In this document: piece after piece, positions 9,092-22,487 of the stretch
How positions within the stretch are numbered: position 1 is the first letter of the stretch
Layout of the letters: the number at the start of each line of letters is the position of its first letter
NCBI RefSeq assembly: GCF_037389425.1
Contig: NZ_JBBHKR010000064.1
Span: forward strand, 86,110-110,109
Direction: 5' to 3'
DNA length: 24,000 nt
DNA from: Stygiolobus sp. CP850M
GTDB lineage: Archaea; Thermoproteota; Thermoprotei_A; Sulfolobales; Sulfolobaceae
Program-made: the position numbers and the translations under genes
The notes under the pieces: model-generated
Told to the model about the DNA's origin: nothing
The model's input: the letters and a program-made list of their open reading frames with translations, nothing else
Databases searched by the model: none

Positions 9092-10589
9092 GTGGGACGA
9101 ACCACTAATAACGGAATATAAGGGAAATAATAGTAGGATAGGAACTCTGGTTCCACACGAGAAGGAAATAGAAATCCAATTAAGAATACCTGAAAAACTT
9201 AAGAGAAGTAAAGAGCCTGAAATACCAGAGCTATCAGAACTAGAAGTAGTTAGGCACTTCGTAAGGCTCTCTCAAATGAGCTTCGGAGTGGATACTGGAT
9301 TTATGCCTTTAGGCTCATGTACTATGAAATATAATCCTAAAGTGGAAGAAAAAACTTCAGAGATAGTTTCTGAATATCACCCGTTACAAGATTTTGACAC
9401 TGTTCAGGGAATTCTGGAAATGATTTACGAGATGCAAAATATGTTAGCTGAGATCACTGGTATGGATCAATGTAGTCTTCAAGTTCCAGCAGGTGCGGCT
9501 GGAGAATTAGCAGGTGTCTTAATGATAAAGAAATATCATGAAGATAAGAATAGAAGAAATCGCGATGAAATGTTAATAGCGGATTCTGCTCACGGTACTA
9601 ATCCAGCAAGTGCAGCTATGGCAGGATATAAGGTAATCTACATAAGGACAAACAAGGATGGGCTAATAGATATAGACATATTAAAGGAAGTTACAAGCGA
9701 AAAGACAGCCGGGTTCATGCTCACTAATCCTAATACACTAGGACTTTTTGAGAGTGATATTCTAGAGATATCCAAGATTCTTCATAGGGTTGATGCTAAA
9801 CTCTATTATGATGGTGCAAACCTAAATGGGATACTGGGAATAGTCAGACCGGGAGACATGGGATTCGATGTTGTTCATCTCAATCTCCATAAGACCTTTG
9901 GAGTCCCTCATGGTGGAGGAGGGCCAGGTGCTGGAGCTATATGCGCCAAAGGTGAAATAGTAGACTATTTGCCCTATCCCTTAGTTCAGAAAAAGGATGG
10001 AAAGTTTACACTAAATTATGTTCCGCCTAAAAGTATTGGTAAGATAGCTACCTTTTATGGCAATATTGCTAATGTTGTAAGAGCGTATTCATACATTTTA
10101 GGTTTAGGTTCTGAAGGCATTTCTATGGTAGGAAAGTTGAGTAGTCTAGCTACTAACTACCTAATAAGTAAACTCAAGGGAGTAAGAGGTCTCTCATTAC
10201 CTTATTCAGATAGACCCAGAAAACACGAGGTTGTATTCTCGGCGAAACAATTGTTTAACGAGACCGGGATTTCGGCTAATGATATCGCTAAAGCACTGAT
10301 CGATAGGGGCTTTTACGCTCCTACAATTTATTTCCCGCCTAACGTAGAAGAGGCTTTAATGATAGAACCTACTGAAACCGAACCGAAAGAGGTTCTTGAT
10401 AAATATGCAGATGCAATTAGGCAGATAGTTGAAGAGGCTTACAAGAATCCGCAATTACTGTTAAACTCTCCATCAAATACCTCTGTCGGTAGGATTGATC
10501 AAGTTACTGCAAATCACCCCTCTTCAGTGACTCCTACGTATAGGGTGTACAGACTGAGAAGTGAGGGAAAAATATCTATCTTAAAGTAA
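9075..10589 (+). CDS. gcvPB: Glycine dehydrogenase (decarboxylating) subunit 2
   Basis: PLP-lysine motif HLNLHKTFGVPHGGGGPG. The track ORF starts at TTG 9069; I prefer ATG 9075, which is preceded by a GGAGGT SD at 9061-9066. It overlaps the gcvPA 3' end. Confidence 0.95.
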   Translation: MWRQAKWDEPLITEYKGNNSRIGTLVPHEKEIEIQLRIPEKLKRSKEPEIPELSELEVVRHFVRLSQMSFGVDTGFMPLGSCTMKYNPKVEEKTSEIVSEYHPLQDFDTVQGILEMIYEMQNMLAEITGMDQCSLQVPAGAAGELAGVLMIKKYHEDKNRRNRDEMLIADSAHGTNPASAAMAGYKVIYIRTNKDGLIDIDILKEVTSEKTAGFMLTNPNTLGLFESDILEISKILHRVDAKLYYDGANLNGILGIVRPGDMGFDVVHLNLHKTFGVPHGGGGPGAGAICAKGEIVDYLPYPLVQKKDGKFTLNYVPPKSIGKIATFYGNIANVVRAYSYILGLGSEGISMVGKLSSLATNYLISKLKGVRGLSLPYSDRPRKHEVVFSAKQLFNETGISANDIAKALIDRGFYAPTIYFPPNVEEALMIEPTETEPKEVLDKYADAIRQIVEEAYKNPQLLLNSPSNTSVGRIDQVTANHPSSVTPTYRVYRLRSEGKISILK

Positions 10590-11015
10590 TGAGAATAATA
10601 TAGAAATATATCCGAGGTAAGGTATTGAAAATATTATTCCATGAATCTCTAACACTTTTCCTATAACGAATTGGTGAGGAACACCGTAAGGTTGTTCTAA
10701 ACCTATTCTATTATCAGGAATGGGATTGGTTATTGGATCTACACCTTGTGTTATATAACTATTATATTGAGGGTTAATTTGAATAACTCTATGAATTACA
10801 TAAGTTCCTAGAGTTGATTTATATATAATTATATTTCCTACACTAATGTTTTTTGGAGAAGTATAGAAAGTTAGGAAGCCATTTTGAAATTCCGGATACA
10901 TTGAAACTCCTTCTACGCTAGCTGTCTGTACTACTCCTGAAAATACTCCTATATAGATCATTAAAATAAGTATTAAAAGTATGATGTCACTCTTCTTCAT
11001 CTTCATCAAGGTCAC
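10581..11015 (-). CDS. Type I signal peptidase (S26/Sec11-like)
   Basis: An N-terminal TM anchor, then the catalytic-Ser box GVSMYPEF, then IIIYKS...YVIHRV (His box) and the TQGVDPITNPIPDN segment (the TKGDNN..D-like box). The stop overlaps the gcvPB stop convergently by 9 nt. Confidence 0.7.
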   Translation of the reverse strand: MTLMKMKKSDIILLILILMIYIGVFSGVVQTASVEGVSMYPEFQNGFLTFYTSPKNISVGNIIIYKSTLGTYVIHRVIQINPQYNSYITQGVDPITNPIPDNRIGLEQPYGVPHQFVIGKVLEIHGIIFSIPYLGYISILFSLL

Positions 11016-11334
11016 TCAAATCAAGTTCTATTACTTCGGCTCTGTTTTCCTCCTCCTTCTCTTGCTCTTCTCCTATCTTCTTAACTCCTTTCTTACCCTC
11101 TACCTCTACGGAGCTCCCTCCAGCCTTTATTTTTGAAACTACTGCTTTCCATTTATGTCCACACTTAGGACATTCATAAGAGCCCATAACTGTTATGGTT
11201 ATTCTTCCATATGCATCTGGTAGAGGAGATACTAGTTGCCAAGTCTTTGTCGGTTTATCAACTTTTGTTCCACAATTAGGGCATACGTCTGGCTCGCTCT
11301 GTTTTTTCCTAGGCATGAGTAATATGTAATACAA
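10987..11334 (-). CDS. Zinc-ribbon protein with an acidic C-terminal tail (function unknown)
   Basis: CPNCG...(33 aa)...CPKCG four-Cys ribbon, a Lys/Gly-rich linker, then EEQEKEEENRAEVIELDLSDLDEDEEE. The probable true start is MPRKKQ at 11316. It overlaps both flanking genes. Confidence 0.65.
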   Translation of the reverse strand: MYYILLMPRKKQSEPDVCPNCGTKVDKPTKTWQLVSPLPDAYGRITITVMGSYECPKCGHKWKAVVSKIKAGGSSVEVEGKKGVKKIGEEQEKEEENRAEVIELDLSDLDEDEEE

Positions 11335-11623
11335 ATAAACTATAAATTAATTGGCATAATATTGACGCCGTCAGAAGTAAAGGGGATATGAATTTGTATT
11401 TTTTATTCAAAGCTATTACATATCCTATAATATTGAAAAATATTAAGATTGGTAAAGTTATTATGGTTTGAAGGTAAAAATACGCTACCAAAAACGGTGC
11501 TGTGACCCAAGTGATATAAAATGCTTTTTCGTTACTTATCTTTCCCCTTAGGATTCGAGCGTAAACTGGCGTTAATACCCCGTATATGATCAAAGGTATT
11601 GAGCTGTAACAAATAGGTAACAT
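11309..11623 (-). CDS. Small integral membrane protein (3-4 predicted TM helices), unknown function
   Basis: 104 aa, strongly hydrophobic. It is the first gene of a three-gene overlapping minus-strand cluster. No motif recognised. Confidence 0.5.
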
Positions 11624-13298: not shown

Positions 13299-13330
13299 AT
13301 ACTCAGCTGATAATTTTGAGGAGTAATACC

Positions 13331-14047
13331 ATGCCGGTTTCAGTTGAAGTATTAACGAAGTTCATAGGACAAAAGATAAAGGACATTTACGGTAGAGATG
13401 TAGGGATTCTACTTCACGTTTATACTGAAATCGACGGAACAGTAACTGGCGTAGAGATTTCTAAAGGAGATGAGATACAGAGTTACGCTCCTGACAGTCT
13501 GAAATTAGATGGGGATTCATTAGTATTAATTCCAGAGTGGAGGAGCGAGGCTTACAAGATTTTAGGATATATGGATAAAATAAGAAGAAGACAGAAAGCG
13601 TTAGAGGAGTTATACTCTAAGAACGAGATCCCAAAGAGTATGTATGATGATATGAAGAGAAAGTTGGACGCCGAAATGTTAAAGGTCAGAGATGAACAAA
13701 GTAAACTCAAGGGGAAACTTAAGGATAGGTTAAACAAAATTGAGGATCAGTTATCTCAGATCGATAGGGCTACAATAGCACTTAAAATGAGTTATATCTC
13801 GGGAGAGTTACCAGAAACTGCATATAAGAATTCGATAGAGATCCTTAGGCAATCTAAAGAGAGTTATACCGCGGAAAGGGATGATATAAGAAAAACGTTA
13901 GATAAGCTAGACGGGCTTGATAAAGAGAGTTTGGATTTAAAGCCTTCTCCCTCATTACCCACGCAGACAGAACAATCTACAAAGACGGAAAGTAATAAGA
14001 GTGAAGTGCCTTTGCCAATACCAGTAAGGGTAATAAATACTTTGTAA
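13331..14047 (+). CDS. cdvA: Cell division protein CdvA
   Basis: N-terminal PRC-barrel-like domain ([22 protein letters not shown]), a long coiled coil, and a C-terminal Pro-rich ESCRT-III-binding peptide ([15 protein letters not shown], 14000-14044). It is followed by cdvB and cdvC. The track ORF starts at TTG 13316. Confidence 0.9.
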
Positions 14048-14065
14048 CTAATCTAGTGACTTAGG

Positions 14066-14845
14066 ATGTTTGATAAGTTATCATCAATTTTTAACAATGA
14101 TAAGAAGCGAAAAGTACAATTAGGGAAGATGATTACGGAAATATCATTGAAGCTAAAGGAACAGCAAGACAGACTTGACGAGGCAATAAGGAGGTTAAAG
14201 GAGAGGGACAAGGAGCTCTTCGAAAAAGTAGTTAGAGCCCAAATTGAGGGTGATGTTGCTAGGGCCACTATCTACGCTCAAGAGATCTCTGACATTAGGA
14301 AAATGATCAAAATAATTTATACTGCTTATTTGGCAATAGAAAAGGTCAGACTGAAGCTTGATACTGTTCAGGAATTACAAGGTGTATCCCTAGTCCTATT
14401 TCCAGTTATGAAAATATTAGGAGAGCTTAAGGATCAGATAAAGGGAGTAGCTCCTGAAGTGGCTTTAGCGTTAGACTCCATAACAAGCAGTGTTAACAGT
14501 ATTGCTATAGAAACAGGTGCCATAAGTGAGAGATCTGTAGTTCCGGCAATGGTTGACGAACAAGCTAAGCAGATATTAGATGAGGCTCAAAAGATGGCAG
14601 AAGTAAAAGTTAGAGAAATCTTGCCAGAATTACCTCATCCTCCGACAGAATTACCTAAACCTAGAGCTCAGGCAATACAAATAAAGCGCCAATTAACAGA
14701 AGATATGCTCCTGGATTACATTAGAAGTACGGGGGGATTTCTCGATCTAGAATATATTTCAAAGAACTATGGGGTAGATAAGGTAGAAGTTCTCAATCTA
14801 TTAAAGAGATTGGAACAGAAGGGTCTGATAGCATTGGAGGGATGA
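14066..14845 (+). CDS. cdvB: ESCRT-III homolog CdvB with C-terminal winged helix
   Basis: 259 aa with a Snf7-like helical core, a Pro-rich MIM2-like stretch [14 protein letters not shown] (14621-14662), and a wH-like C-terminus ([41 protein letters not shown]). Confidence 0.9.
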
Positions 14846-14849
14846 GTAG

Positions 14850-15971
14850 ATGTCGGCTCAGTCAATGTTAGAAGAAATGGCAAGAAAATATGCTGTTGCA
14901 GCTGTAAAAGCTGATAAGGAAGGAAACATAGAGGAGGCTATAAATAACTATAAAAAAGCTATAGAAGTTTTATCTCAATTGATAGCGTTGTATCATGATT
15001 CTAATGCTGTTAAAGTCTATGAACAGATGATTAATGAGTATAAAAAAAGAATAGAGGTACTAAAAGAAGTAGTTCCTGCTAATGGGGAAGAACAAGCTAA
15101 GACAACATCTGTTAGTATAGAGGATCTCATAGTAAAGGAAAAACCTAAGGTCTCTTTTAACGATATAGTAGGACTTGATGATGTGAAGGAGGCGTTAAAA
15201 GAGTCTATAGTATATCCAACAAAAAGACCTGACTTATTCCCTCTCGGATGGCCTAGAGGCATTCTTTTATATGGTCCTCCAGGTTGTGGTAAAACTATGA
15301 TAGCTGCTGCAGTGGCTAGTGAAATTGACTCATATTTTATTCAGGTCGACGCTGCTTCGATTATGTCTAAGTGGCTAGGTGAAGCAGAGAAGAACGTAGC
15401 TAAAATATTCAACAACGCGAGGGAACTCTCTAAAAAGGAGAATAAACCGGTTATAATATTTATTGACGAGATAGATGCGTTACTTGGTGTGTATAATAGC
15501 GAAAACGGCGGAGAGGTAAGAGTTAGAAACCAATTTTTAAAAGAAATGGACGGATTACAAGATAAGTCTGAGACGTTCAAAGTTTACGTTATAGGTGCAA
15601 CGAATAAGCCATGGAGATTAGATGAACCATTCCTAAGGAGATTCCAGAAGAGAATCTACGTCAGACTTCCCGATTTTAATCACAGGCTGGCGTTATTAAA
15701 GTACTACACATCTAAGATCAATTTGGACAGTAGTGTTAATTTGAATCAACTCGCAGAACTAACTGAAGGGTATACAGCGAGCGATATTAAGGATATTGTT
15801 CAAGCTGCTCAGATTAAGGTAGTAAAGGAGATGTTTGAAAAGAACTTATCGGAACCTAGACCAGTAGCAACTAACGACTTCATGGAAGTTCTAAAGGTTA
15901 GAAAACCCAGTGTAAATGAAGAAATGGTTAAAGCTTACGAAGTGTGGCACGAAAAGTTCAAGGCCTTGTAA
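14850..15971 (+). CDS. cdvC: Vps4-like AAA+ ATPase CdvC
   Basis: N-terminal MIT-like helices, Walker A GPPGCGKT, Walker [11 protein letters not shown], and a second region of homology. The gap after cdvB is 4 nt. Confidence 0.95.
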
Positions 15972-16890: not shown

Positions 16891-17200
16891 TTAATTTTGC
16901 TTTACTAAGACTCTCGGTAGGTCTTTGACGGTTACTGAATCTCTAAAGTATTCACCGGTTAGAACATCTGTATATTCTCCATCTATTTTACGTTTTGTTC
17001 AATCAAGCTTTGTAACGTTTTCACTATAACATATATTCCATACCTTCTCTTACGTTATCTATGGCTCCCCTAAAATATTCCAAATCATCTTTTTCAAGCT
17101 CATATTTTCCTAAACTAGAAATGCTAATCTCAAGTTTTTCTATATAAGGAGCGTAGATTGAAAACGTTAACTTATTAACGTCAAGATTTGCCCCTATCAT
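16891..17200 (-). pseudogene. Possible relic of a GH13 (TreZ-like) glycoside hydrolase: intact 58-aa N-terminal piece plus frame-shifted fragments
   Basis: The 17024-17200 ORF (MIGANLDVNKLTFSIYAPYIEKLEISISSLGKYELEKDDLEYFRGAIDNVREGMEYML*) has an ATGA overlap with the upstream gene and resembles the E-set/CBM48 N-domain pattern FxxxAPYxxxhxh...YEhEKDxxxYF...NV. Two further pieces (VKTLQSLIEQNVK*, ...IDGEYTDVLTGEYFRDSVTVKDLPRVLVKQN*) follow in the other two frames and end 5 nt from tRNA-Leu. Confidence 0.3.
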
Positions 17201-18042
17201 ATTGAAATAATTTCGCCGAAATAGTATATCAATTGTTGTCCGTTTAAGAACAATGTTATATTATATGCCGTACCGTAATTTTGTACAGATATTATGTTTG
17301 ACGGTGGGAGGTTACCGTATATCACTACTTGCTGTCCTTGAGAAATAGTTATACTTGAAGTATTGACTAAACTTCCATTTACATAGAGTTTAGCCGTGTA
17401 AGAACCACTTGAGAGTTTTATGTACTGAGTATTAAGAACGAAGGCGATTGAGTAAATTATACTTCCATTGGGATAAGCGGTTAGTGATATCGGAGCTGAC
17501 TGTACGTAATAAGGATAAGCATGTGAGTTTGTGAAAATGATCGAAGCGTTAGTATAGAATGTAAGATACTTTGAGGACACAACGGCTCTTATAGGGTAGA
17601 AATGTGCAATAGTGTTTAATTGATATATTTGTTGATTTAAAGTTATGTTGTTCTGTGGTTTCAATTGCCAATTGTAATTACCAGACCCCTCGATATAAAC
17701 ATTATAGACTTGTTGTGCAGCTGGAATTGATATATTAACTAATAACTTCTTAGAGCTGAAAGGGGCAACGCTAATACTTGTGTCGTTGATATAGTTCTTT
17801 GTGTGGGCGAATATACCAGATTGCGTTCCCGCGGAAATTGCCACTATTACATTAGCTGACATTGGTAGAGGACCTTTATTTAAACTAACGACACAGATTG
17901 AATAAACTTGGTAACCAGATTGGGTTATTGATTCCTTAACTATATACGCATAAACGTGGAAATTATTAGCTTCTACGTAAAATACTGCACCTAGGCTTAT
18001 AAATAATATGAGTATGACGCCAAGCAGGTAAATTCGTTTCAT
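17197..18042 (-). CDS. Secreted or membrane-anchored Ser/Thr/Asn/Tyr-rich protein with many N-glycosylation sequons, unknown function
   Basis: N-terminal MKRIYLLGVILILFISLGAVFYVEA signal/anchor. At least 8 N-x-S/T sequons (NDT, NIS, NIT, NAS, NGS x2, NTS, NIT). The beta-rich composition is typical of Sulfolobales surface proteins. Confidence 0.6.
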   Translation of the reverse strand: MKRIYLLGVILILFISLGAVFYVEANNFHVYAYIVKESITQSGYQVYSICVVSLNKGPLPMSANVIVAISAGTQSGIFAHTKNYINDTSISVAPFSSKKLLVNISIPAAQQVYNVYIEGSGNYNWQLKPQNNITLNQQIYQLNTIAHFYPIRAVVSSKYLTFYTNASIIFTNSHAYPYYVQSAPISLTAYPNGSIIYSIAFVLNTQYIKLSSGSYTAKLYVNGSLVNTSSITISQGQQVVIYGNLPPSNIISVQNYGTAYNITLFLNGQQLIYYFGEIISI

Positions 18043-18705: not shown

Positions 18706-19752
18706 ATGAAAAGTGGAATAATAGGATGGGGTAGTTATATTCCTAGATATAGAATTAGGTCTGAGGAAATAGCTGAGCTATGGGGCATTGAAAAGGAGGT
18801 TGTAAAAAGCCTCGGATTGTCAGAAAAGGCTGTTCCTTCAGCAGATGAGGATTCTACTACAATGGCATGGGAAGCCTCTAGAAATGCCTTAGCTAGAGCT
18901 AGAATTGATCCCTCAGAGATTAACCTTGTATTGTTCGGCTCTGAATCTAAAGTTTATGCCGTTAAGCCTACTGCTACTATTTTACTAGATTCATTAGGTA
19001 TCTCTCATAATACTCTAAGTGCCGATTTAGAATTTGCTTGCAGAGCAGCTTCAGCCGGTTTAAGACTTGCTTCTAGTATGGTTGAAGCTGGTAAGATTAA
19101 GTACGGCTTAGTAATTGGTAGTGATACTGCACAATCAAATCCTGGCGATGTTCTAGAACTTAGTTCAGCCTCGGCTGCAGTAGCCTATGTAGTTGGAAGA
19201 GACAACGAATCCGCAGCAGTTATCGAAGCTTCTACCTCCTTCTCTACCGATACTCCGGATTTCTGGAGGAGAGATGGTATGCCGTATCCACTTCATGGCG
19301 AAGGATTTACCGGTGAACCTGCTTACTTTTATCATATAATGTCTGCGGTGAAGAACCTTCTCGATGAGAATGGGTACAAAATTTCTGACTTTGATTACTT
19401 TGTATTTCACCAGCCTAATGGTAAGTTTCCTATACAAGTTGCAAAGAAATTGAATGTTCCGTTAGAAAAAGTAAAGGCCGGATTAGTATCTCCATATATT
19501 GGTAATCCCTATAACGCTTCTGCTTTGTTAGGTCTGGCAAAAGTGCTTGATATTGCGAAACCTGGTGAAAGAATATTAACAGCTCCCTTTGGAAGCGGTG
19601 CAGGAAGTGATGCCTTCAGCATATTAGTAACGGATAAAATCTCTGAGAGGCAAAAGCTAGCCCCGAGTGTAGAATATTATATGAATAGGAAAAAGGTTAT
19701 TCCTTATTCGTTATATGCAAAAACGACCAATAAGTTCAAGGTGTATGAATAA
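18706..19752 (+). CDS. Hydroxymethylglutaryl-CoA synthase (archaeal type)
   Basis: 348 aa. The catalytic triad context is intact: Glu in [12 protein letters not shown], Cys in [11 protein letters not shown], His in [10 protein letters not shown], plus [10 protein letters not shown]. Confidence 0.9.
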
Positions 19753-20849
19753 TGGTCTCAATAGTAGGTAGTGGTCTCATAAAAATTGATAGGTACTATG
19801 AATTTTCTGAAACGGATCTAGTCATTGAAGCTTACAAGAATTTAATATTAAAAGTAAAGGAAATGCCTTCATCAATTGATGCTTTAATTTTAGCCAGCAC
19901 GTATAGTGATACCTTGTCTAAGAATCTTATGTTAGCCTTCAAACTTTCCAACAAGTTAGGCATTAAAACCTCTATATCGTTTAGAGTTGAAAATGGGGAT
20001 AACGGTGGTTCGGCAGTATTAGCAGCATATTCGTTAATCAAATCTGGTATTGCTAATAGTGTTCTGCTAATAGGTGTGGATAAGTTTTCGGATTATCCGT
20101 CAAAGTACGTTAATGATGTCATCTCTTATAATTTGGGTAATGAATACCAATATCAAGTAGGATTAACTCCTCATGCACATGCTGCCTTACTAATGAAGAG
20201 GTATATGAAAAAGTTCAGCAAAGACTATGATTACTTTACAAAATGGCCTTTAAAGATGCACGAAAACGCTGTGGAGAATCCTTATGCGTATCTTAGATTT
20301 AAAGTAGATAAAAAGGTAATAATGGATTCGCAGATAGTTGCTGAACCCTTGCGTTTGTTTGATGTAGCTGCAAGGGCTGATGGTGCTTCAGTAGTTCTGA
20401 TAACATCTGATGAATTGTCAAGGAAATTCACTGATACAACTGTAAGGATAGAAAACATCGTGAGCAGTAATTTACCTTTAGATCTTGCTAGTGTGAGAAT
20501 AAACTCTGTAAGAGATGTTGCAAAGAAGCTCACGGCTAAAATGAGTAGTAATGATATTTACGAGATCCACGATTCTTATAGTATCTTAGCTACGTTAGAG
20601 CTAGAGTCCTTAGGTCTTGCTAAGGACGGTAACGGATTGGACAATCTAGATAATGTAAACGTAAATCTAGGTGGTGGTCTTAAAGCAAGAGGCTATCCGG
20701 GCTCGGCTGCTGCGATATATCAGTTAGCTGAGTTATATTTACATTTAATTGGAGAACATCCAAGAGGTAAAATAGATGCAGAAAGAGGATTTTTATTGTC
20801 TACAGACGATCTTGGTAATTCTTCTCATCTAGTTGCTCTGATGAGGTGA
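19752..20849 (+). CDS. Thiolase-fold protein (acetoacetyl-CoA thiolase homolog) lacking all catalytic residues; apparent pseudo-thiolase
   Basis: 365 aa with SCP2/archaeal-thiolase architecture (RVENGDNGGSAVLAAYSLIKSGIANSVLLIGVDK, AEPLRLFDVAARADGASVVL, YEIHDSYSI, NLGGGLKARGYPGSAAA) and zero Cys. TAATG overlap with the HMGCS gene. Confidence 0.85.
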   Translation: MVSIVGSGLIKIDRYYEFSETDLVIEAYKNLILKVKEMPSSIDALILASTYSDTLSKNLMLAFKLSNKLGIKTSISFRVENGDNGGSAVLAAYSLIKSGIANSVLLIGVDKFSDYPSKYVNDVISYNLGNEYQYQVGLTPHAHAALLMKRYMKKFSKDYDYFTKWPLKMHENAVENPYAYLRFKVDKKVIMDSQIVAEPLRLFDVAARADGASVVLITSDELSRKFTDTTVRIENIVSSNLPLDLASVRINSVRDVAKKLTAKMSSNDIYEIHDSYSILATLELESLGLAKDGNGLDNLDNVNVNLGGGLKARGYPGSAAAIYQLAELYLHLIGEHPRGKIDAERGFLLSTDDLGNSSHLVALMR

Positions 20850-21268
20850 AATATATGAAAATAAGTCCATCTCAAAGTTGGAGACTAAAAAATACGTTAT
20901 ACTCTCTAACTCTAGGAATATGCAAGAAATGTGGGAACGTGTTCTATCCGTATCAAAGTATATGTGGAAATTGTGGCTCTGTAGACGTAGAAAAGGTTAA
21001 GGCTAAGGGGACAGGTACTTTACTCGAATACACAGTCCTTTATCAAACAAGGGAGGGGTTCGAAAAGCAAGTCCCTATAATAGTAGGTCTCATTAGGTTA
21101 GATGAGGGTTTAGATATAGTTGCCCCCTTGACAGACGTAGAAGCCAATGAATTAAAAGAGGGTGTTAGAGTTGAGGCTGTGTTAAGAAGGCTGAGGTCTG
21201 ATTCCACTAATGGCTTAATACAGTACGGGATAAAATTTAGAGTGATAGATAATGCAGGAAACAATTAA
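20846..21268 (+). CDS. DUF35 family Zn-ribbon/OB-fold protein (scaffold of the thiolase-HMGCS complex)
   Basis: [20 protein letters not shown] rubredoxin-like ribbon followed by an OB-fold-like C-terminus. The likely true start is ATG 20855, 5 nt after a GAGGTGA SD. The track start GTG 20846 overlaps the upstream stop. Confidence 0.85.
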
Positions 21269-22487
21269 TAATATTGTTGAGAAAGTAATAAAGGGCGAGA
21301 TCCAACTTCATGAAATAGATAATTTTTTAGAAGCAAATGCTGCGATGGTAGCTAGAAGACTAGCTATAGAAAGATTAACTAACTCAAACTTACCTTCGAT
21401 AGGTTCTACAATTTTAGATTATGCTGAAATTAAGAATAGAAATGCAGAGAATGTAATAGGAGCTGTTCAAGTACCTATGGGTGTTATAGGTCCTTTAAGA
21501 GTTAATGGTGATTATGCTAGGGGAGAATTCTATGTACCTTTAGCTACAACAGAGGGAGCCTTGATAGCCAGCGTTAACCGTGGTGTAAAGGCCGTAACCT
21601 TAAGTGGAGGTACAAGAGTTAAGATAATTTTTGACGGAATGGCAAGGGCTCCAGTTTTCAAATTGGATAGTATAATTGATGTTGTAGATTTTATAGATTG
21701 GGTAAAGAAACATTATGAAGATTTGAAACATATAGCAGAGTCTACAACCTCTCATGGAAAATTAATTTCCGTAGAGCCTTACGTTTTAGGTAATAATGTG
21801 TGGTTGAGGTTTATTTACGATACTGGTGACGCGATGGGTATGAATATGGCTACTATTGCTACAGAGAAAGTGTGTGAATATATTGAGGAGAACTTTGGAA
21901 GGGCTAGGTGTTTAGCAGTTAGCGGTAACATGTGTAGTGATAAGAAGCAATCAATAGTAAATAGCCTTCACGGTAGAGGGAAAACCGTAGTAGCTGAGGC
22001 TTTAATCCCTAACGATATTATCACAAAGGTTTTGAAATCAGATAAGAACTTAATTCATGAGGTCAATTTGAGAAAGAATTGGGCTGGTGGAGCTAGGGCA
22101 GGAACGTTCTTTCAATATAACGCTCACTTTGCAAATATAATTGCGGCCATTTTCTTGGCAACTGGTCAAGATATGGCTCAAGTAGTTGAAAGTAGCAGCG
22201 GTTACACGTGGACTGAAGTCAGAGAAAACGGAATTTACATATCTGTAACTCTAACTTCTCTTGAAGTAGGGACCGTAGGAGGAGGTACTAGATTACCTAC
22301 ACAGAGAGAAGCACTTTCTATAATGGGCGTTTACGGTAGTGGTAACCCGCCTGGTAGCAATGCTAAGAAATTCGCTGAAATAATAGCTTCTACAGTGTTG
22401 GCTGGTGAGCTTAACTTGTTATCAGCACTAGCCAATAAAGAATTGGGGAAGGCACATCTTAAGCTAGGTAGGGCTGCGAAAGTTTAA
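21252..22487 (+). CDS. hmgA: HMG-CoA reductase (class I)
   Basis: 411 aa. Motifs: [32 protein letters not shown], and a C-terminal [10 protein letters not shown] containing the catalytic His. 17-nt overlap with the DUF35 gene. Confidence 0.95.

Follow-up and report, generated by a model that had tools for sequence, protein, structure and literature searches.

The complex of thiolase, HMG-CoA synthase (HMGCS), and a DUF35 protein is the accepted answer to how the endergonic thiolase step is pushed toward archaeal isoprenoid lipids, and canonical thiolase chemistry requires an acetyl-cysteine intermediate. What, then, does a thiolase-fold protein without a nucleophilic cysteine do in a mevalonate operon? 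The question is raised by a 24,000-nt stretch of the genome of Stygiolobus sp. CP850M (contig NZ_JBBHKR010000064.1, positions 86,110 to 110,109; hereafter, the window), in which the second gene of a tightly packed operon encoding HMGCS, a thiolase-like protein, a DUF35 protein, and HMG-CoA reductase (HMGR) specifies 365 amino acids (aa) and not a single Cys. Using profile and structural alignment, a survey of related operons, and published genetic and proteomic data, we arrive at a reading that we hold to be probable, with real room for doubt: the thiolase-like protein is a putative obligatory non-catalytic subunit of the HMGCS complex, and acetoacetyl-CoA comes from separate Cys-bearing thiolases. 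The first step of lipid-precursor synthesis would then probably be carried out by another enzyme.

Asp83 in the Nucleophile Column of a Thiolase Fold

The open reading frame (ORF) is intact, and its product scores above the cutoffs of both Pfam Thiolase_N and Thiolase_C_1. An AF2 model computed with 52 homologs as input (pLDDT 92.9, pTM 0.93) superposes in Foldseek on the thiolase of the Methanothermococcus thermolithotrophicus complex (6ESQ_A) with a TM-score of 0.94 and an rmsd of 2.0 Å, which bears out a first-pass annotation of this DNA that had read a Cys-free thiolase fold from the translation. The closest solved relatives are 4YZO (ST0096 of Sulfurisphaera tokodaii, a 'thiolase-like protein'), 7YVY (the Pyrococcus furiosus thiolase), and 6ESQ_A itself. 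In HMMER and MAFFT alignments with 6ESQ_A, Asp83 falls in the column of the nucleophilic Cys (RVENG-D-NGG against RVEAA-C-ASG), Ser275 in the Cys column of the HDCF motif, and Tyr315 in the His column of the GHx motif. Asp83 sits in the AF2 model within a strand-turn-helix element, between strand 75-79 and helix 86-97. The alignments confirm the column assignment of the annotation, which had proposed profile alignment and structural superposition among its checks, and the three codons lie where it had placed them (Table 1). The HDxF motif of the window protein reads HDSY, with His273-Asp274 retained, and the Ser of the CxS motif is gone in the window's subgroup through a one-residue deletion.

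Because Asp83 stands in place of the nucleophilic Cys, the canonical acyl-Cys ping-pong chemistry is impossible for this protein, as had been concluded earlier. Two further features from which an anomaly had been argued carry less weight. The protein is indeed free of Cys, but at the Cys frequency of the other window ORFs (0.48%) the probability of finding none in 365 aa is 0.17, and eight other ORFs are Cys-free as well. Whole-protein Cys absence was therefore rejected as a statistical anomaly; the informative feature is the catalytic column, not the total Cys count. Likewise, of the three catalytic replacements that had been listed, Asp83 and Tyr315 stand, but Ser275 does not serve as a sign of loss. 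Many operon thiolases that retain the nucleophilic Cys, active relatives among them, have Ser, Ala, or Thr in place of the HDCF Cys, so the HDC-to-HDS change says little on its own, and we rejected it as uninformative about inactivation.

Against NF053570, the equivalog for the M. thermolithotrophicus acetyl-CoA acetyltransferase, the protein reaches 133 bits for a cutoff of 600, and its best NCBIfam family, NF004720, gives 206.7 bits for a cutoff of 420. It falls under the cutoff in every NCBIfam family matched, while the neighboring HMGCS passes its own equivalog (NF003274, 545.8 bits against a cutoff of 244). HMGCS also retains the GSES, EFAC, FHQPN, and GN contexts of its catalytic Glu, Cys, His, and Asn when aligned by HMMER with 6ESQ_I, the DUF35 protein keeps its CxxC...CxxC pattern, and HMGR is full length, so the earlier description of the neighbors as catalytically intact holds. 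Databases name the thiolase-like protein 'acetyl-CoA C-acetyltransferase (AcaB-1)', 'thiolase family protein', or 'acetyl-CoA synthetase'. By position and fold it is an ortholog of the complex thiolase, yet we do not file it as an acetoacetyl-CoA thiolase because it lacks the defining Cys and the GHx His and scores under the equivalog cutoff.

A Gene under Selection

The gene is not decaying, as the first-pass annotation had also judged. The gene order AdoMet decarboxylase (AdoMetDC)/HMGCS/thiolase-like/DUF35/HMGR/SHMT/Usp/GAPDH is identical in five syntenic loci (L084-L088), which come from Stygiolobus, Sulfolobus acidocaldarius, Metallosphaera, Saccharolobus solfataricus, and a metagenome contig (99% identical), and four of the five (L084, L085, L086, L088) also share the 1-nt overlap of HMGCS with the thiolase-like gene. 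In the comparison with Stygiolobus, the thiolase-like gene has a pN of 0.128, as against 0.136 for DUF35, 0.051 for HMGCS, 0.069 for HMGR, and 0.039 for SHMT, with pS at about 0.8, and hence saturated, for all five genes (0.80 for the thiolase-like gene); the ranking of pN is the same against three more genera. The thiolase-like gene is clearly under purifying selection. Its pN is two to three times that of HMGCS, HMGR, and SHMT, a factor of about 2.5, and on par with that of DUF35, and constraint on it is relaxed relative to its catalytic partners. A survey of operon-linked orthologs with a test for selection had been proposed earlier, and it returns Cys loss across the clade together with this purifying selection. 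Mean identity to the M. thermolithotrophicus thiolase is 34.6% in Cys-less operons and 47.1% in Cys-retaining ones; the corresponding means for HMGCS are 53.7% and 59.8%.

Orthology of the thiolase-like gene was assigned from conserved synteny and from the ortholog table of PMC6249222, which equates AcaB-1 with Saci_1361, SSO0534, and ST1350. In the transposon-sequencing (Tn-seq) data for S. islandicus M.16.4, M164_1583 (AcaB-1, arCOG01278), M164_1582 (DUF35), and M164_1581 (HMGR) are essential (PMC6249222, Supplementary Data 8), and SHMT, AdoMetDC, and the paralog AcaB-6 are non-essential (PMC6249222). The essential AcaB-1 of M.16.4 carries the motifs VDNADASGG, IHDSYS, and ARGHAGG and has zero Cys. 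SSO0534, the probable Sa. solfataricus ortholog, is abundant in LC-MS/MS (PMC6105217). In Metallosphaera sedula, Msed_1647 was a candidate ketothiolase in a 2020 paper (PMC7078158); it is probably the ortholog, since the partner DUF35 is placed at Msed_1648 in the table of PMC6249222.

Some public entries for the S. acidocaldarius ortholog are truncated or scrambled. Five of them (P0005, P0008, P0014, P0024, and P0025) contain a translated Nextera adaptor in mid-gene (CLLYTSPSP, LSLIHISEPTR, DVYKRQ, MCIRD) and come from contaminated assemblies rather than from naturally truncated genes; in P0006 (CP046615) the difference is a frameshift at the C-terminus.

Cys-less Thiolases across HMGCS Operons

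A word-indexed protein search with the thiolase-like protein yielded 74 homologs, 43 of them from Sulfolobaceae and covering Stygiolobus, Sulfolobus, Sulfurisphaera, Saccharolobus, Metallosphaera, Acidianus-like organisms, Aramenus, and HS-7. None of the 43 has Cys at the nucleophile column, which is Asp in 41 and Glu in two, and their total Cys count ranges from 0 to 3. They have in common the motifs E-x-G-D-(A)-S/N-G-G and HDSYS and mostly G-Y-P, Tyr at position 315 being typical of Sulfolobaceae and His being found in Saccharolobus and in Glu-type relatives. In an exhaustive HMMER scan over 1.84 billion representatives, Asp or Glu fills the nucleophile column in almost all of the nearest relatives (E < 1e-40), and farther out many classes without the nucleophile (D, E, G, S, P, T, and others) stand beside canonical CHCH types and CHAH types (e.g., 7YVY).

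A scan of GTDB species genomes gave at least 80 loci, which were annotated with the four proteins of the window's operon and classed against 6ESQ. The loci listed came from outside the true Sulfolobaceae, whose loci were obtained by exact-protein look-ups, and the taxon comparison covers loci with a true HMGCS, a thiolase-like gene, and a DUF35 gene, with or without HMGR. Among the loci listed, the nucleophile column is Glu (classes EHSH, EHNH, and EYTH) in operons of Desulfurococcales, Acidilobales, Caldisphaera, and Zestosphaera, Glu or Asp in Caldarchaeales and two further Thermoproteota, Glu in one Heimdall and one Odin genome, and Asp, Glu, or Gly next to HMGR in Anaerolineae and other Chloroflexi. 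Gly occupies the column in operon-linked proteins of one archaeon (L001-L003), of entries P0050-P0065, and of L046. The operon thiolases of Thorarchaeota (with HDS), of some Thermoproteota and Promethearchaeati (HDA), and of Methanomethylicus (HDT) still have Cys in this column.

In a neighbor-joining tree (no support values), the Asp-bearing Sulfolobaceae and the Glu-bearing Desulfurococcales/Acidilobales form one clade; because they do, the tree suggests one old loss of the nucleophile in the ancestry of that clade and several independent losses elsewhere. The Cys-less state is not confined to Sulfolobales in the strict sense. It is present in all Sulfolobaceae sampled, but it also extends to Desulfurococcales, Acidilobales, Caldarchaeales, some Asgard archaea, and Chloroflexi. 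An HMGCS-seeded search, for its part, returned only Sulfolobales and Desulfurococcales among its best 120 matches, with Thermoproteales, Nitrososphaeria, and Thermoplasmata outside that sample.

The same spread bears on a connection that had been drawn to the 3-hydroxypropionate/4-hydroxybutyrate (3HP/4HB) cycle. Chloroflexi, which to our knowledge lack 4-hydroxybutyrate cycles, have Cys-less operons too, and many Desulfurococcales are heterotrophs, so the connection is weakened; a strict link between Cys loss and 4-hydroxybutyrate carbon-fixation cycles is not supported, although the 4-hydroxybutyrate branch is still a possible source of acetoacetyl-CoA in autotrophs.

Several loci deserve mention in their own right. 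In Anaerolineae and other Chloroflexota (L046, L064, L070, L076, L082, and L083), HMGR/HMGCS/thiolase-like/DUF35 operons combine Asp, Glu, or Gly at the nucleophile column with GNP in place of GHP. Thorarchaeota and their relatives (L048, L053, L057, L060, L063, L069, L073, L075, and L080), along with PDB 7YVY, keep the nucleophilic Cys and have HDS (Asgard), HDA (P. furiosus and some Thermoproteota), or HDT in place of HDC, the acid/base Cys of SCP2-type thiolases being absent from most of this operon-linked subfamily. Nucleophile-less classes also occur outside HMGCS operons, in Asgard archaea, Bathyarchaeia, Hadarchaeales, and Thermoproteota (L027, L038, L040, L051, L054, L062, L065, and L066), in L050, and in PDB 4YZO; one of these classes has Pro (PHAH), another is ST0096-like with Ser and HDM (SHMH), and some adjoin a DUF35 gene.

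The metagenome-assembled genome (MAG) CAZFJX01, from an uncultured member of the Desulfurococcales, holds two tripartite operons with reciprocal dead subunits. One (L004, 3965-5131) combines a live HMGCS with a Cys-less thiolase of the Glu type and DUF35; the other (L039, 2927-5146) has an HMGCS-like protein in which the catalytic Cys and His are both replaced by Thr, a Cys-bearing CHAH thiolase, and DUF35. A general model of reciprocal duplication was considered and rejected: it is represented by this one Desulfurococcales MAG, the dead-HMGCS type has only about four close homologs, and Sulfolobaceae would remain unexplained.

We found no prior description of the Cys-less state in the searchable literature, with Vogeli et al. 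2018 and Dibrova et al. 2014 lying outside that search.

Relation to Characterized Thiolase-Fold Systems

The reference system is the M. thermolithotrophicus complex (PDB 6ESQ/6ET9; Vogeli et al. 2018), with which the window shares the thiolase fold, as described above, and the gene order HMGCS/thiolase/DUF35. The window protein keeps the His-Asp of HDxF and the GGLKA-G motif, and the window HMGCS is ~50% identical to 6ESQ_I in pairwise alignment. The thiolase-like protein differs by the change of Cys to Asp, the deletion of the CxS Ser, and the change of the GHx His to Tyr, at an overall identity of 26-29%. Acetyl-Cys ping-pong catalysis, and the channelling of intermediates from a thiolase site that depends on it, cannot operate as described for that complex.

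An analogy to a dead subunit is offered by the bacterial systems PhlACB (PpATase), MucABC (SmaATase), and the Pseudomonas fluorescens PfACAT/HMGS-DUF35 complex, which are likewise tripartite and likewise contain one thiolase-fold subunit without catalytic residues, thought to be structural. There, however, it is the HMGS-like subunit that is dead, with its E-C-H-N residues lost, and the thiolase that keeps its Cys; the window operon presents the reverse. The bacterial systems have also left primary metabolism, whereas the window operon sits with HMGR in an essential mevalonate operon.

Among solved structures, ST0096 (PDB 4YZO) is the best sequence match (E 1.6e-36) and has the best Foldseek E-value. 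It, too, lacks the nucleophilic Cys, with Ser in that place and HDM for HDxF, but it belongs to another paralog class (SHMH, where the window protein is DHSY) and to a separate clade. We therefore rejected ST0096 as the ortholog; the operon gene of S. tokodaii is ST1350 in the table of PMC6249222. No dedicated paper on 4YZO was found in the literature searched.

The steroid side-chain aldolases Ltp2 and Sal (6OK1, 9MYR) resemble the window protein in their SCP2-thiolase-like fold, their DUF35 partner, the absence of a nucleophilic Cys, and a repurposed active site. The Tyr that they use in catalysis, however, is part of YDHF or YDCY (the YDxF/YDCY definition is that of PMC12329534), where the window protein, at 18-19% identity, has HDSY. 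Their genes stand among steroid hydratases, while the window DUF35 is a stand-alone protein in an HMGCS/HMGR operon with no hydratase. Membership in the Ltp2/Sal type was rejected on both motif and gene context.

The thiolase superfamily holds a further parallel in chain-length factor (CLF, KS-beta) and the KSQ domains of polyketide synthases, in which the active-site Cys is replaced by Gln, the protein is an obligatory partner of an active condensing enzyme, and the Gln is thought to mimic the acyl-enzyme. CLF and KSQ belong to another subfamily, act on ACP-bound substrates, and, with Gln as the replacement, pair as a heterodimer with a close paralog rather than within an HMGCS/DUF35 complex.

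A Putative Non-Catalytic Subunit and the Alternatives

For the window protein we infer all three elements of the reading that we favor: complex formation, lack of activity, and an outside source of acetoacetyl-CoA. Having lost its acyl-accepting Cys, the subunit would have no means of joining two acetyl-CoA in a ping-pong Claisen condensation, and it would be kept, and be essential, because HMGCS needs the tripartite architecture. Its role would probably be that of a scaffold and of an acyl-CoA/CoA-binding partner. The M. thermolithotrophicus complex reportedly has a CoA site common to thiolase and HMGCS. In the archaeal complex, HMGS is inactive alone and ACAT insoluble alone, according to PMC12960953, which cites Vogeli 2018. 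Because the CoA site is shared and HMGS alone is inactive, HMGCS could depend on the thiolase subunit even once that subunit has lost its own chemistry; that HMGS does not work alone is thus a reason to keep a dead partner. The replaced position lies at the N-terminus of the active-site helix, where Asp or Glu may be favored because a carboxylate suits the helix dipole and the oxyanion hole; Glu, being nearly isosteric with S-acetyl-Cys, could also stand in for the acyl-enzyme, the part ascribed to Gln in KSQ and CLF.

Acetoacetyl-CoA would probably come from separate Cys-bearing thiolases, either stand-alone or in KT/DUF35 pairs. In autotrophs, the 4-hydroxybutyrate branch of the carbon-fixation cycle, which yields acetoacetyl-CoA, could be a further source. 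Other thiolase paralogs had been expected in Sulfolobales, and they are there: S. acidocaldarius has seven KT/DUF35 pairs (Saci_1121/1120 and six more), one of them shown to be active, and Msed_0656 of M. sedula is another active thiolase in the lineage (PMC7078158). Desulfurococcales MAGs contain CHAH-type Cys-bearing thiolases, too.

Within the clade, the 'catalytic' positions drift, with HDS, HDN, YDT, ISDSF, and ISDIF at one motif and GHP or GYP at the other, as expected if no fixed chemistry is selected. This drift, the deletion of the CxS Ser in the window's subgroup, the DUF35-like evolutionary rate, the Gly at the nucleophile column of related operons, and the dead-HMGS precedents fit a non-catalytic structural or ligand-binding subunit.

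A number of observations pull the other way. Conservation of the pocket in the Cys-less clade (Ser of CxS (Ser84) 91%, His273 88%, Asp274 100%, Asn305 100%, GGLKARG 100%, and His at 315 88%) exceeds the obvious needs of a pure scaffold, though the demands of ligand binding and of a stable fold could account for that. Time and again, in lineages that appear independent, the residue that replaces Cys is a carboxylate, even though a change from Cys to Asp or Glu takes two to three nucleotide changes, and this recurrence hints at selection for the carboxylate itself. A clade-specific change from Ala to Gly just before the Asp or Glu (97%) looks like adaptation. Essentiality is equally compatible with a catalytic role, and HMGCS itself was scored 'u', not 'e', in the S. 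islandicus Tn-seq data (PMC6249222). The literature searched held no assays on any Cys-less member.

Alternatively, the subunit would still form acetoacetyl-CoA, with Asp or Glu either accepting the acetyl group as a mixed anhydride or, in the role of general base, enolising acetyl-CoA against the oxyanion hole of the retained His/His(Tyr). We consider such carboxylate catalysis unlikely, and slightly more doubtful still the stronger claim that the recurrent Asp/Glu makes these proteins Cys-independent Claisen enzymes, working through an acetyl-carboxylate or direct base catalysis, in an essential first step across a major clade. Acyl-carboxylate intermediates on Glu or Asp are established in CoA-transferases, several separate lineages have an acidic residue at the nucleophile column, and the gene is essential, with the rest of the pocket conserved and the clade-specific Gly preceding the carboxylate. 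Moreover, active archaeal relatives already lack the HDC Cys (7YVY with HDA, Thorarchaeota with HDS), so the enolising base lies elsewhere and could have been kept. A catalytic carboxylate is nevertheless hard to reconcile with the operon-linked relatives that carry Gly in the same column, with the variation of His273, Ser275, and residue 315 in the clade (including changes of His to Tyr or Ser), with an evolution sped up to the rate of the DUF35 scaffold, or with the additional loss, by deletion, of the CxS Ser in the window's subgroup, and we know of no thiolase-superfamily enzyme with a carboxylate nucleophile. H-to-Y and H-to-A changes kill activity in active complexes, in which the HDxF His is essential (PMC12960953).

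Neofunctionalisation to another acyl-CoA reaction, as a KSQ/CLF-like malonyl-CoA decarboxylase, an Ltp2/Sal-like aldolase, or a thioesterase or transferase with some other part in the pathway, strikes us as improbable. Ltp2 and Sal are real DUF35-paired thiolase-fold enzymes without a nucleophilic Cys, their structures 6OK1 and 9MYR are among the structural neighbors, and some relatives have Y-D-T for H-D-x, resembling the YDxF aldolase motif; the window protein, however, has HDS and not YDx. Although malonyl-CoA is abundant in Sulfolobales running the 3HP/4HB cycle, the operon is strictly HMGCS/thiolase-like/DUF35/HMGR across taxa, with no hydratase or steroid-type partner genes, the path from acetoacetyl-CoA to mevalonate requires no additional reaction, and the active-site residues are not fixed in the clade. 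We give an equally low likelihood to a heteromer in which a Cys-bearing thiolase paralog is the active half and the window protein the inactive one, so that thiolase chemistry still takes place inside the HMGCS complex. Thiolases are obligate dimers, the KS-CLF pair of type II polyketide synthases is a precedent, Cys-bearing CHAH paralogs coexist in these lineages, and one MAG has the second triad of live thiolase and dead HMGCS-like protein. Yet the examined Sulfolobaceae loci have no Cys-bearing thiolase in or beside the operon, nor is there one elsewhere in the window; the overlap coupling of the genes implies that the three operon proteins are made 1:1:1; the live paralogs have DUF35 partners of their own; and AcaB-6, the only paralog with a Tn-seq score retrieved, is non-essential. 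Finally, gene decay, lack of translation, and an error of sequencing or assembly were rejected and have next to no chance of being the explanation. Truncated or scrambled public entries of the S. acidocaldarius ortholog do exist, but these carry the Nextera adaptor and are assembly artefacts, and the Cys-less state recurs in independent genomes and metagenomes of every sampled Sulfolobaceae genus, with conserved synteny, pN far below pS, mass-spectrometric detection of SSO0534, and essentiality of the S. islandicus ortholog.

Implications

If the thiolase subunit is inactive across Sulfolobaceae, Desulfurococcales, Acidilobales, and other lineages, the channelling model is not universal, and the annotation 'acetoacetyl-CoA thiolase AcaB-1' would be wrong in S. 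acidocaldarius, Sa. solfataricus, S. islandicus, and M. sedula. An inactive subunit would also present an essential pseudoenzyme open to study in genetically tractable archaea, and it would mean that the same architecture reached reciprocal outcomes, with HMGS dead in bacteria and the thiolase dead here, as a case of multi-enzyme scaffolds outliving their chemistry. If the carboxylate is catalytic instead, the result would be new enzymology, a chemistry without known counterpart in the thiolase superfamily.

The Operon and Its Surroundings

The coordinates of the operon, its junctions, and the active-site codons are given in Table 1; the GGTG, TAATG, and GTGA elements are as they were first described. 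DUF35 and HMGR overlap by 17 nt.

Table 1. Genes, junctions, and active-site codons of the mevalonate operon (window coordinates).
Feature	Position	Strand	Remarks
HMG-CoA synthase (HMGCS), 348 aa	18706..19752	+	376 bits to 6ESQ_I (HMMER); NCBIfam NF003274 passed
SD-like GGTG, 9-12 nt 5' of the thiolase-like start	19740-19743	+	
TAATG stop/start overlap, HMGCS/thiolase-like gene	19750-19754	+	
Cys-less thiolase-fold protein, 365 aa	19752..20849	+	Ortholog of Saci_1361, SSO0534, ST1350, M164_1583 ('AcaB-1')
Codon GAT = Asp83, nucleophilic-Cys column (CxS motif)	19998-20000	+	One-residue deletion next to it: GD-NGG vs GDASGG
CAC GAT TCT = His273-Asp274-Ser275, HDxF motif, x = Ser	20568-20576 (Ser275 TCT 20574-20576)	+	
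Codon TAT = Tyr315, GHx histidine column	20694-20696	+	
GTGA start/stop overlap, thiolase-like gene/DUF35	20846-20849	+	
DUF35 protein, 140 aa, zinc ribbon and OB fold	20846..21268	+	Pfam zf-ChsH2, OB_ChsH2_C; CxxC...CxxC in translation
HMG-CoA reductase (HMGR), 411 aa, full length	21252..22487	+	Pfam HMG-CoA_red 445.9 bits

The window HMGCS is 100% identical to a protein of a 'Sulfolobaceae archaeon' MAG, and the closest named species is Stygiolobus caldivivus, with 92% identity for HMGCS and 76% for the thiolase-like protein. No second thiolase occurs elsewhere in the 24,000-nt window, whose remaining genes are those of an ordinary core chromosome: SufBCD, the glycine cleavage system, enolase, CdvA/ESCRT-III/Vps4, RpiA, AdoMet decarboxylase, and SHMT. 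The complete CdvA/ESCRT-III (Snf7)/Vps4 (CdvC) cell-division operon occupies 13316-15971, ~3 kb upstream of the mevalonate operon. A 281-aa ORF on the minus strand (17197-18042), with no Pfam match and an apparently hydrophobic N-terminus, keeps the same syntenic place, between RpiA or other genes and AdoMetDC, in Stygiolobus, S. acidocaldarius, and Sa. solfataricus. Also on the minus strand, at 10581-11623, lie three successive small overlapping ORFs of 143, 114, and 103 aa with no Pfam match, two of which have 4 and 2 Cys and are relatively Cys-rich for this Cys-poor genome.

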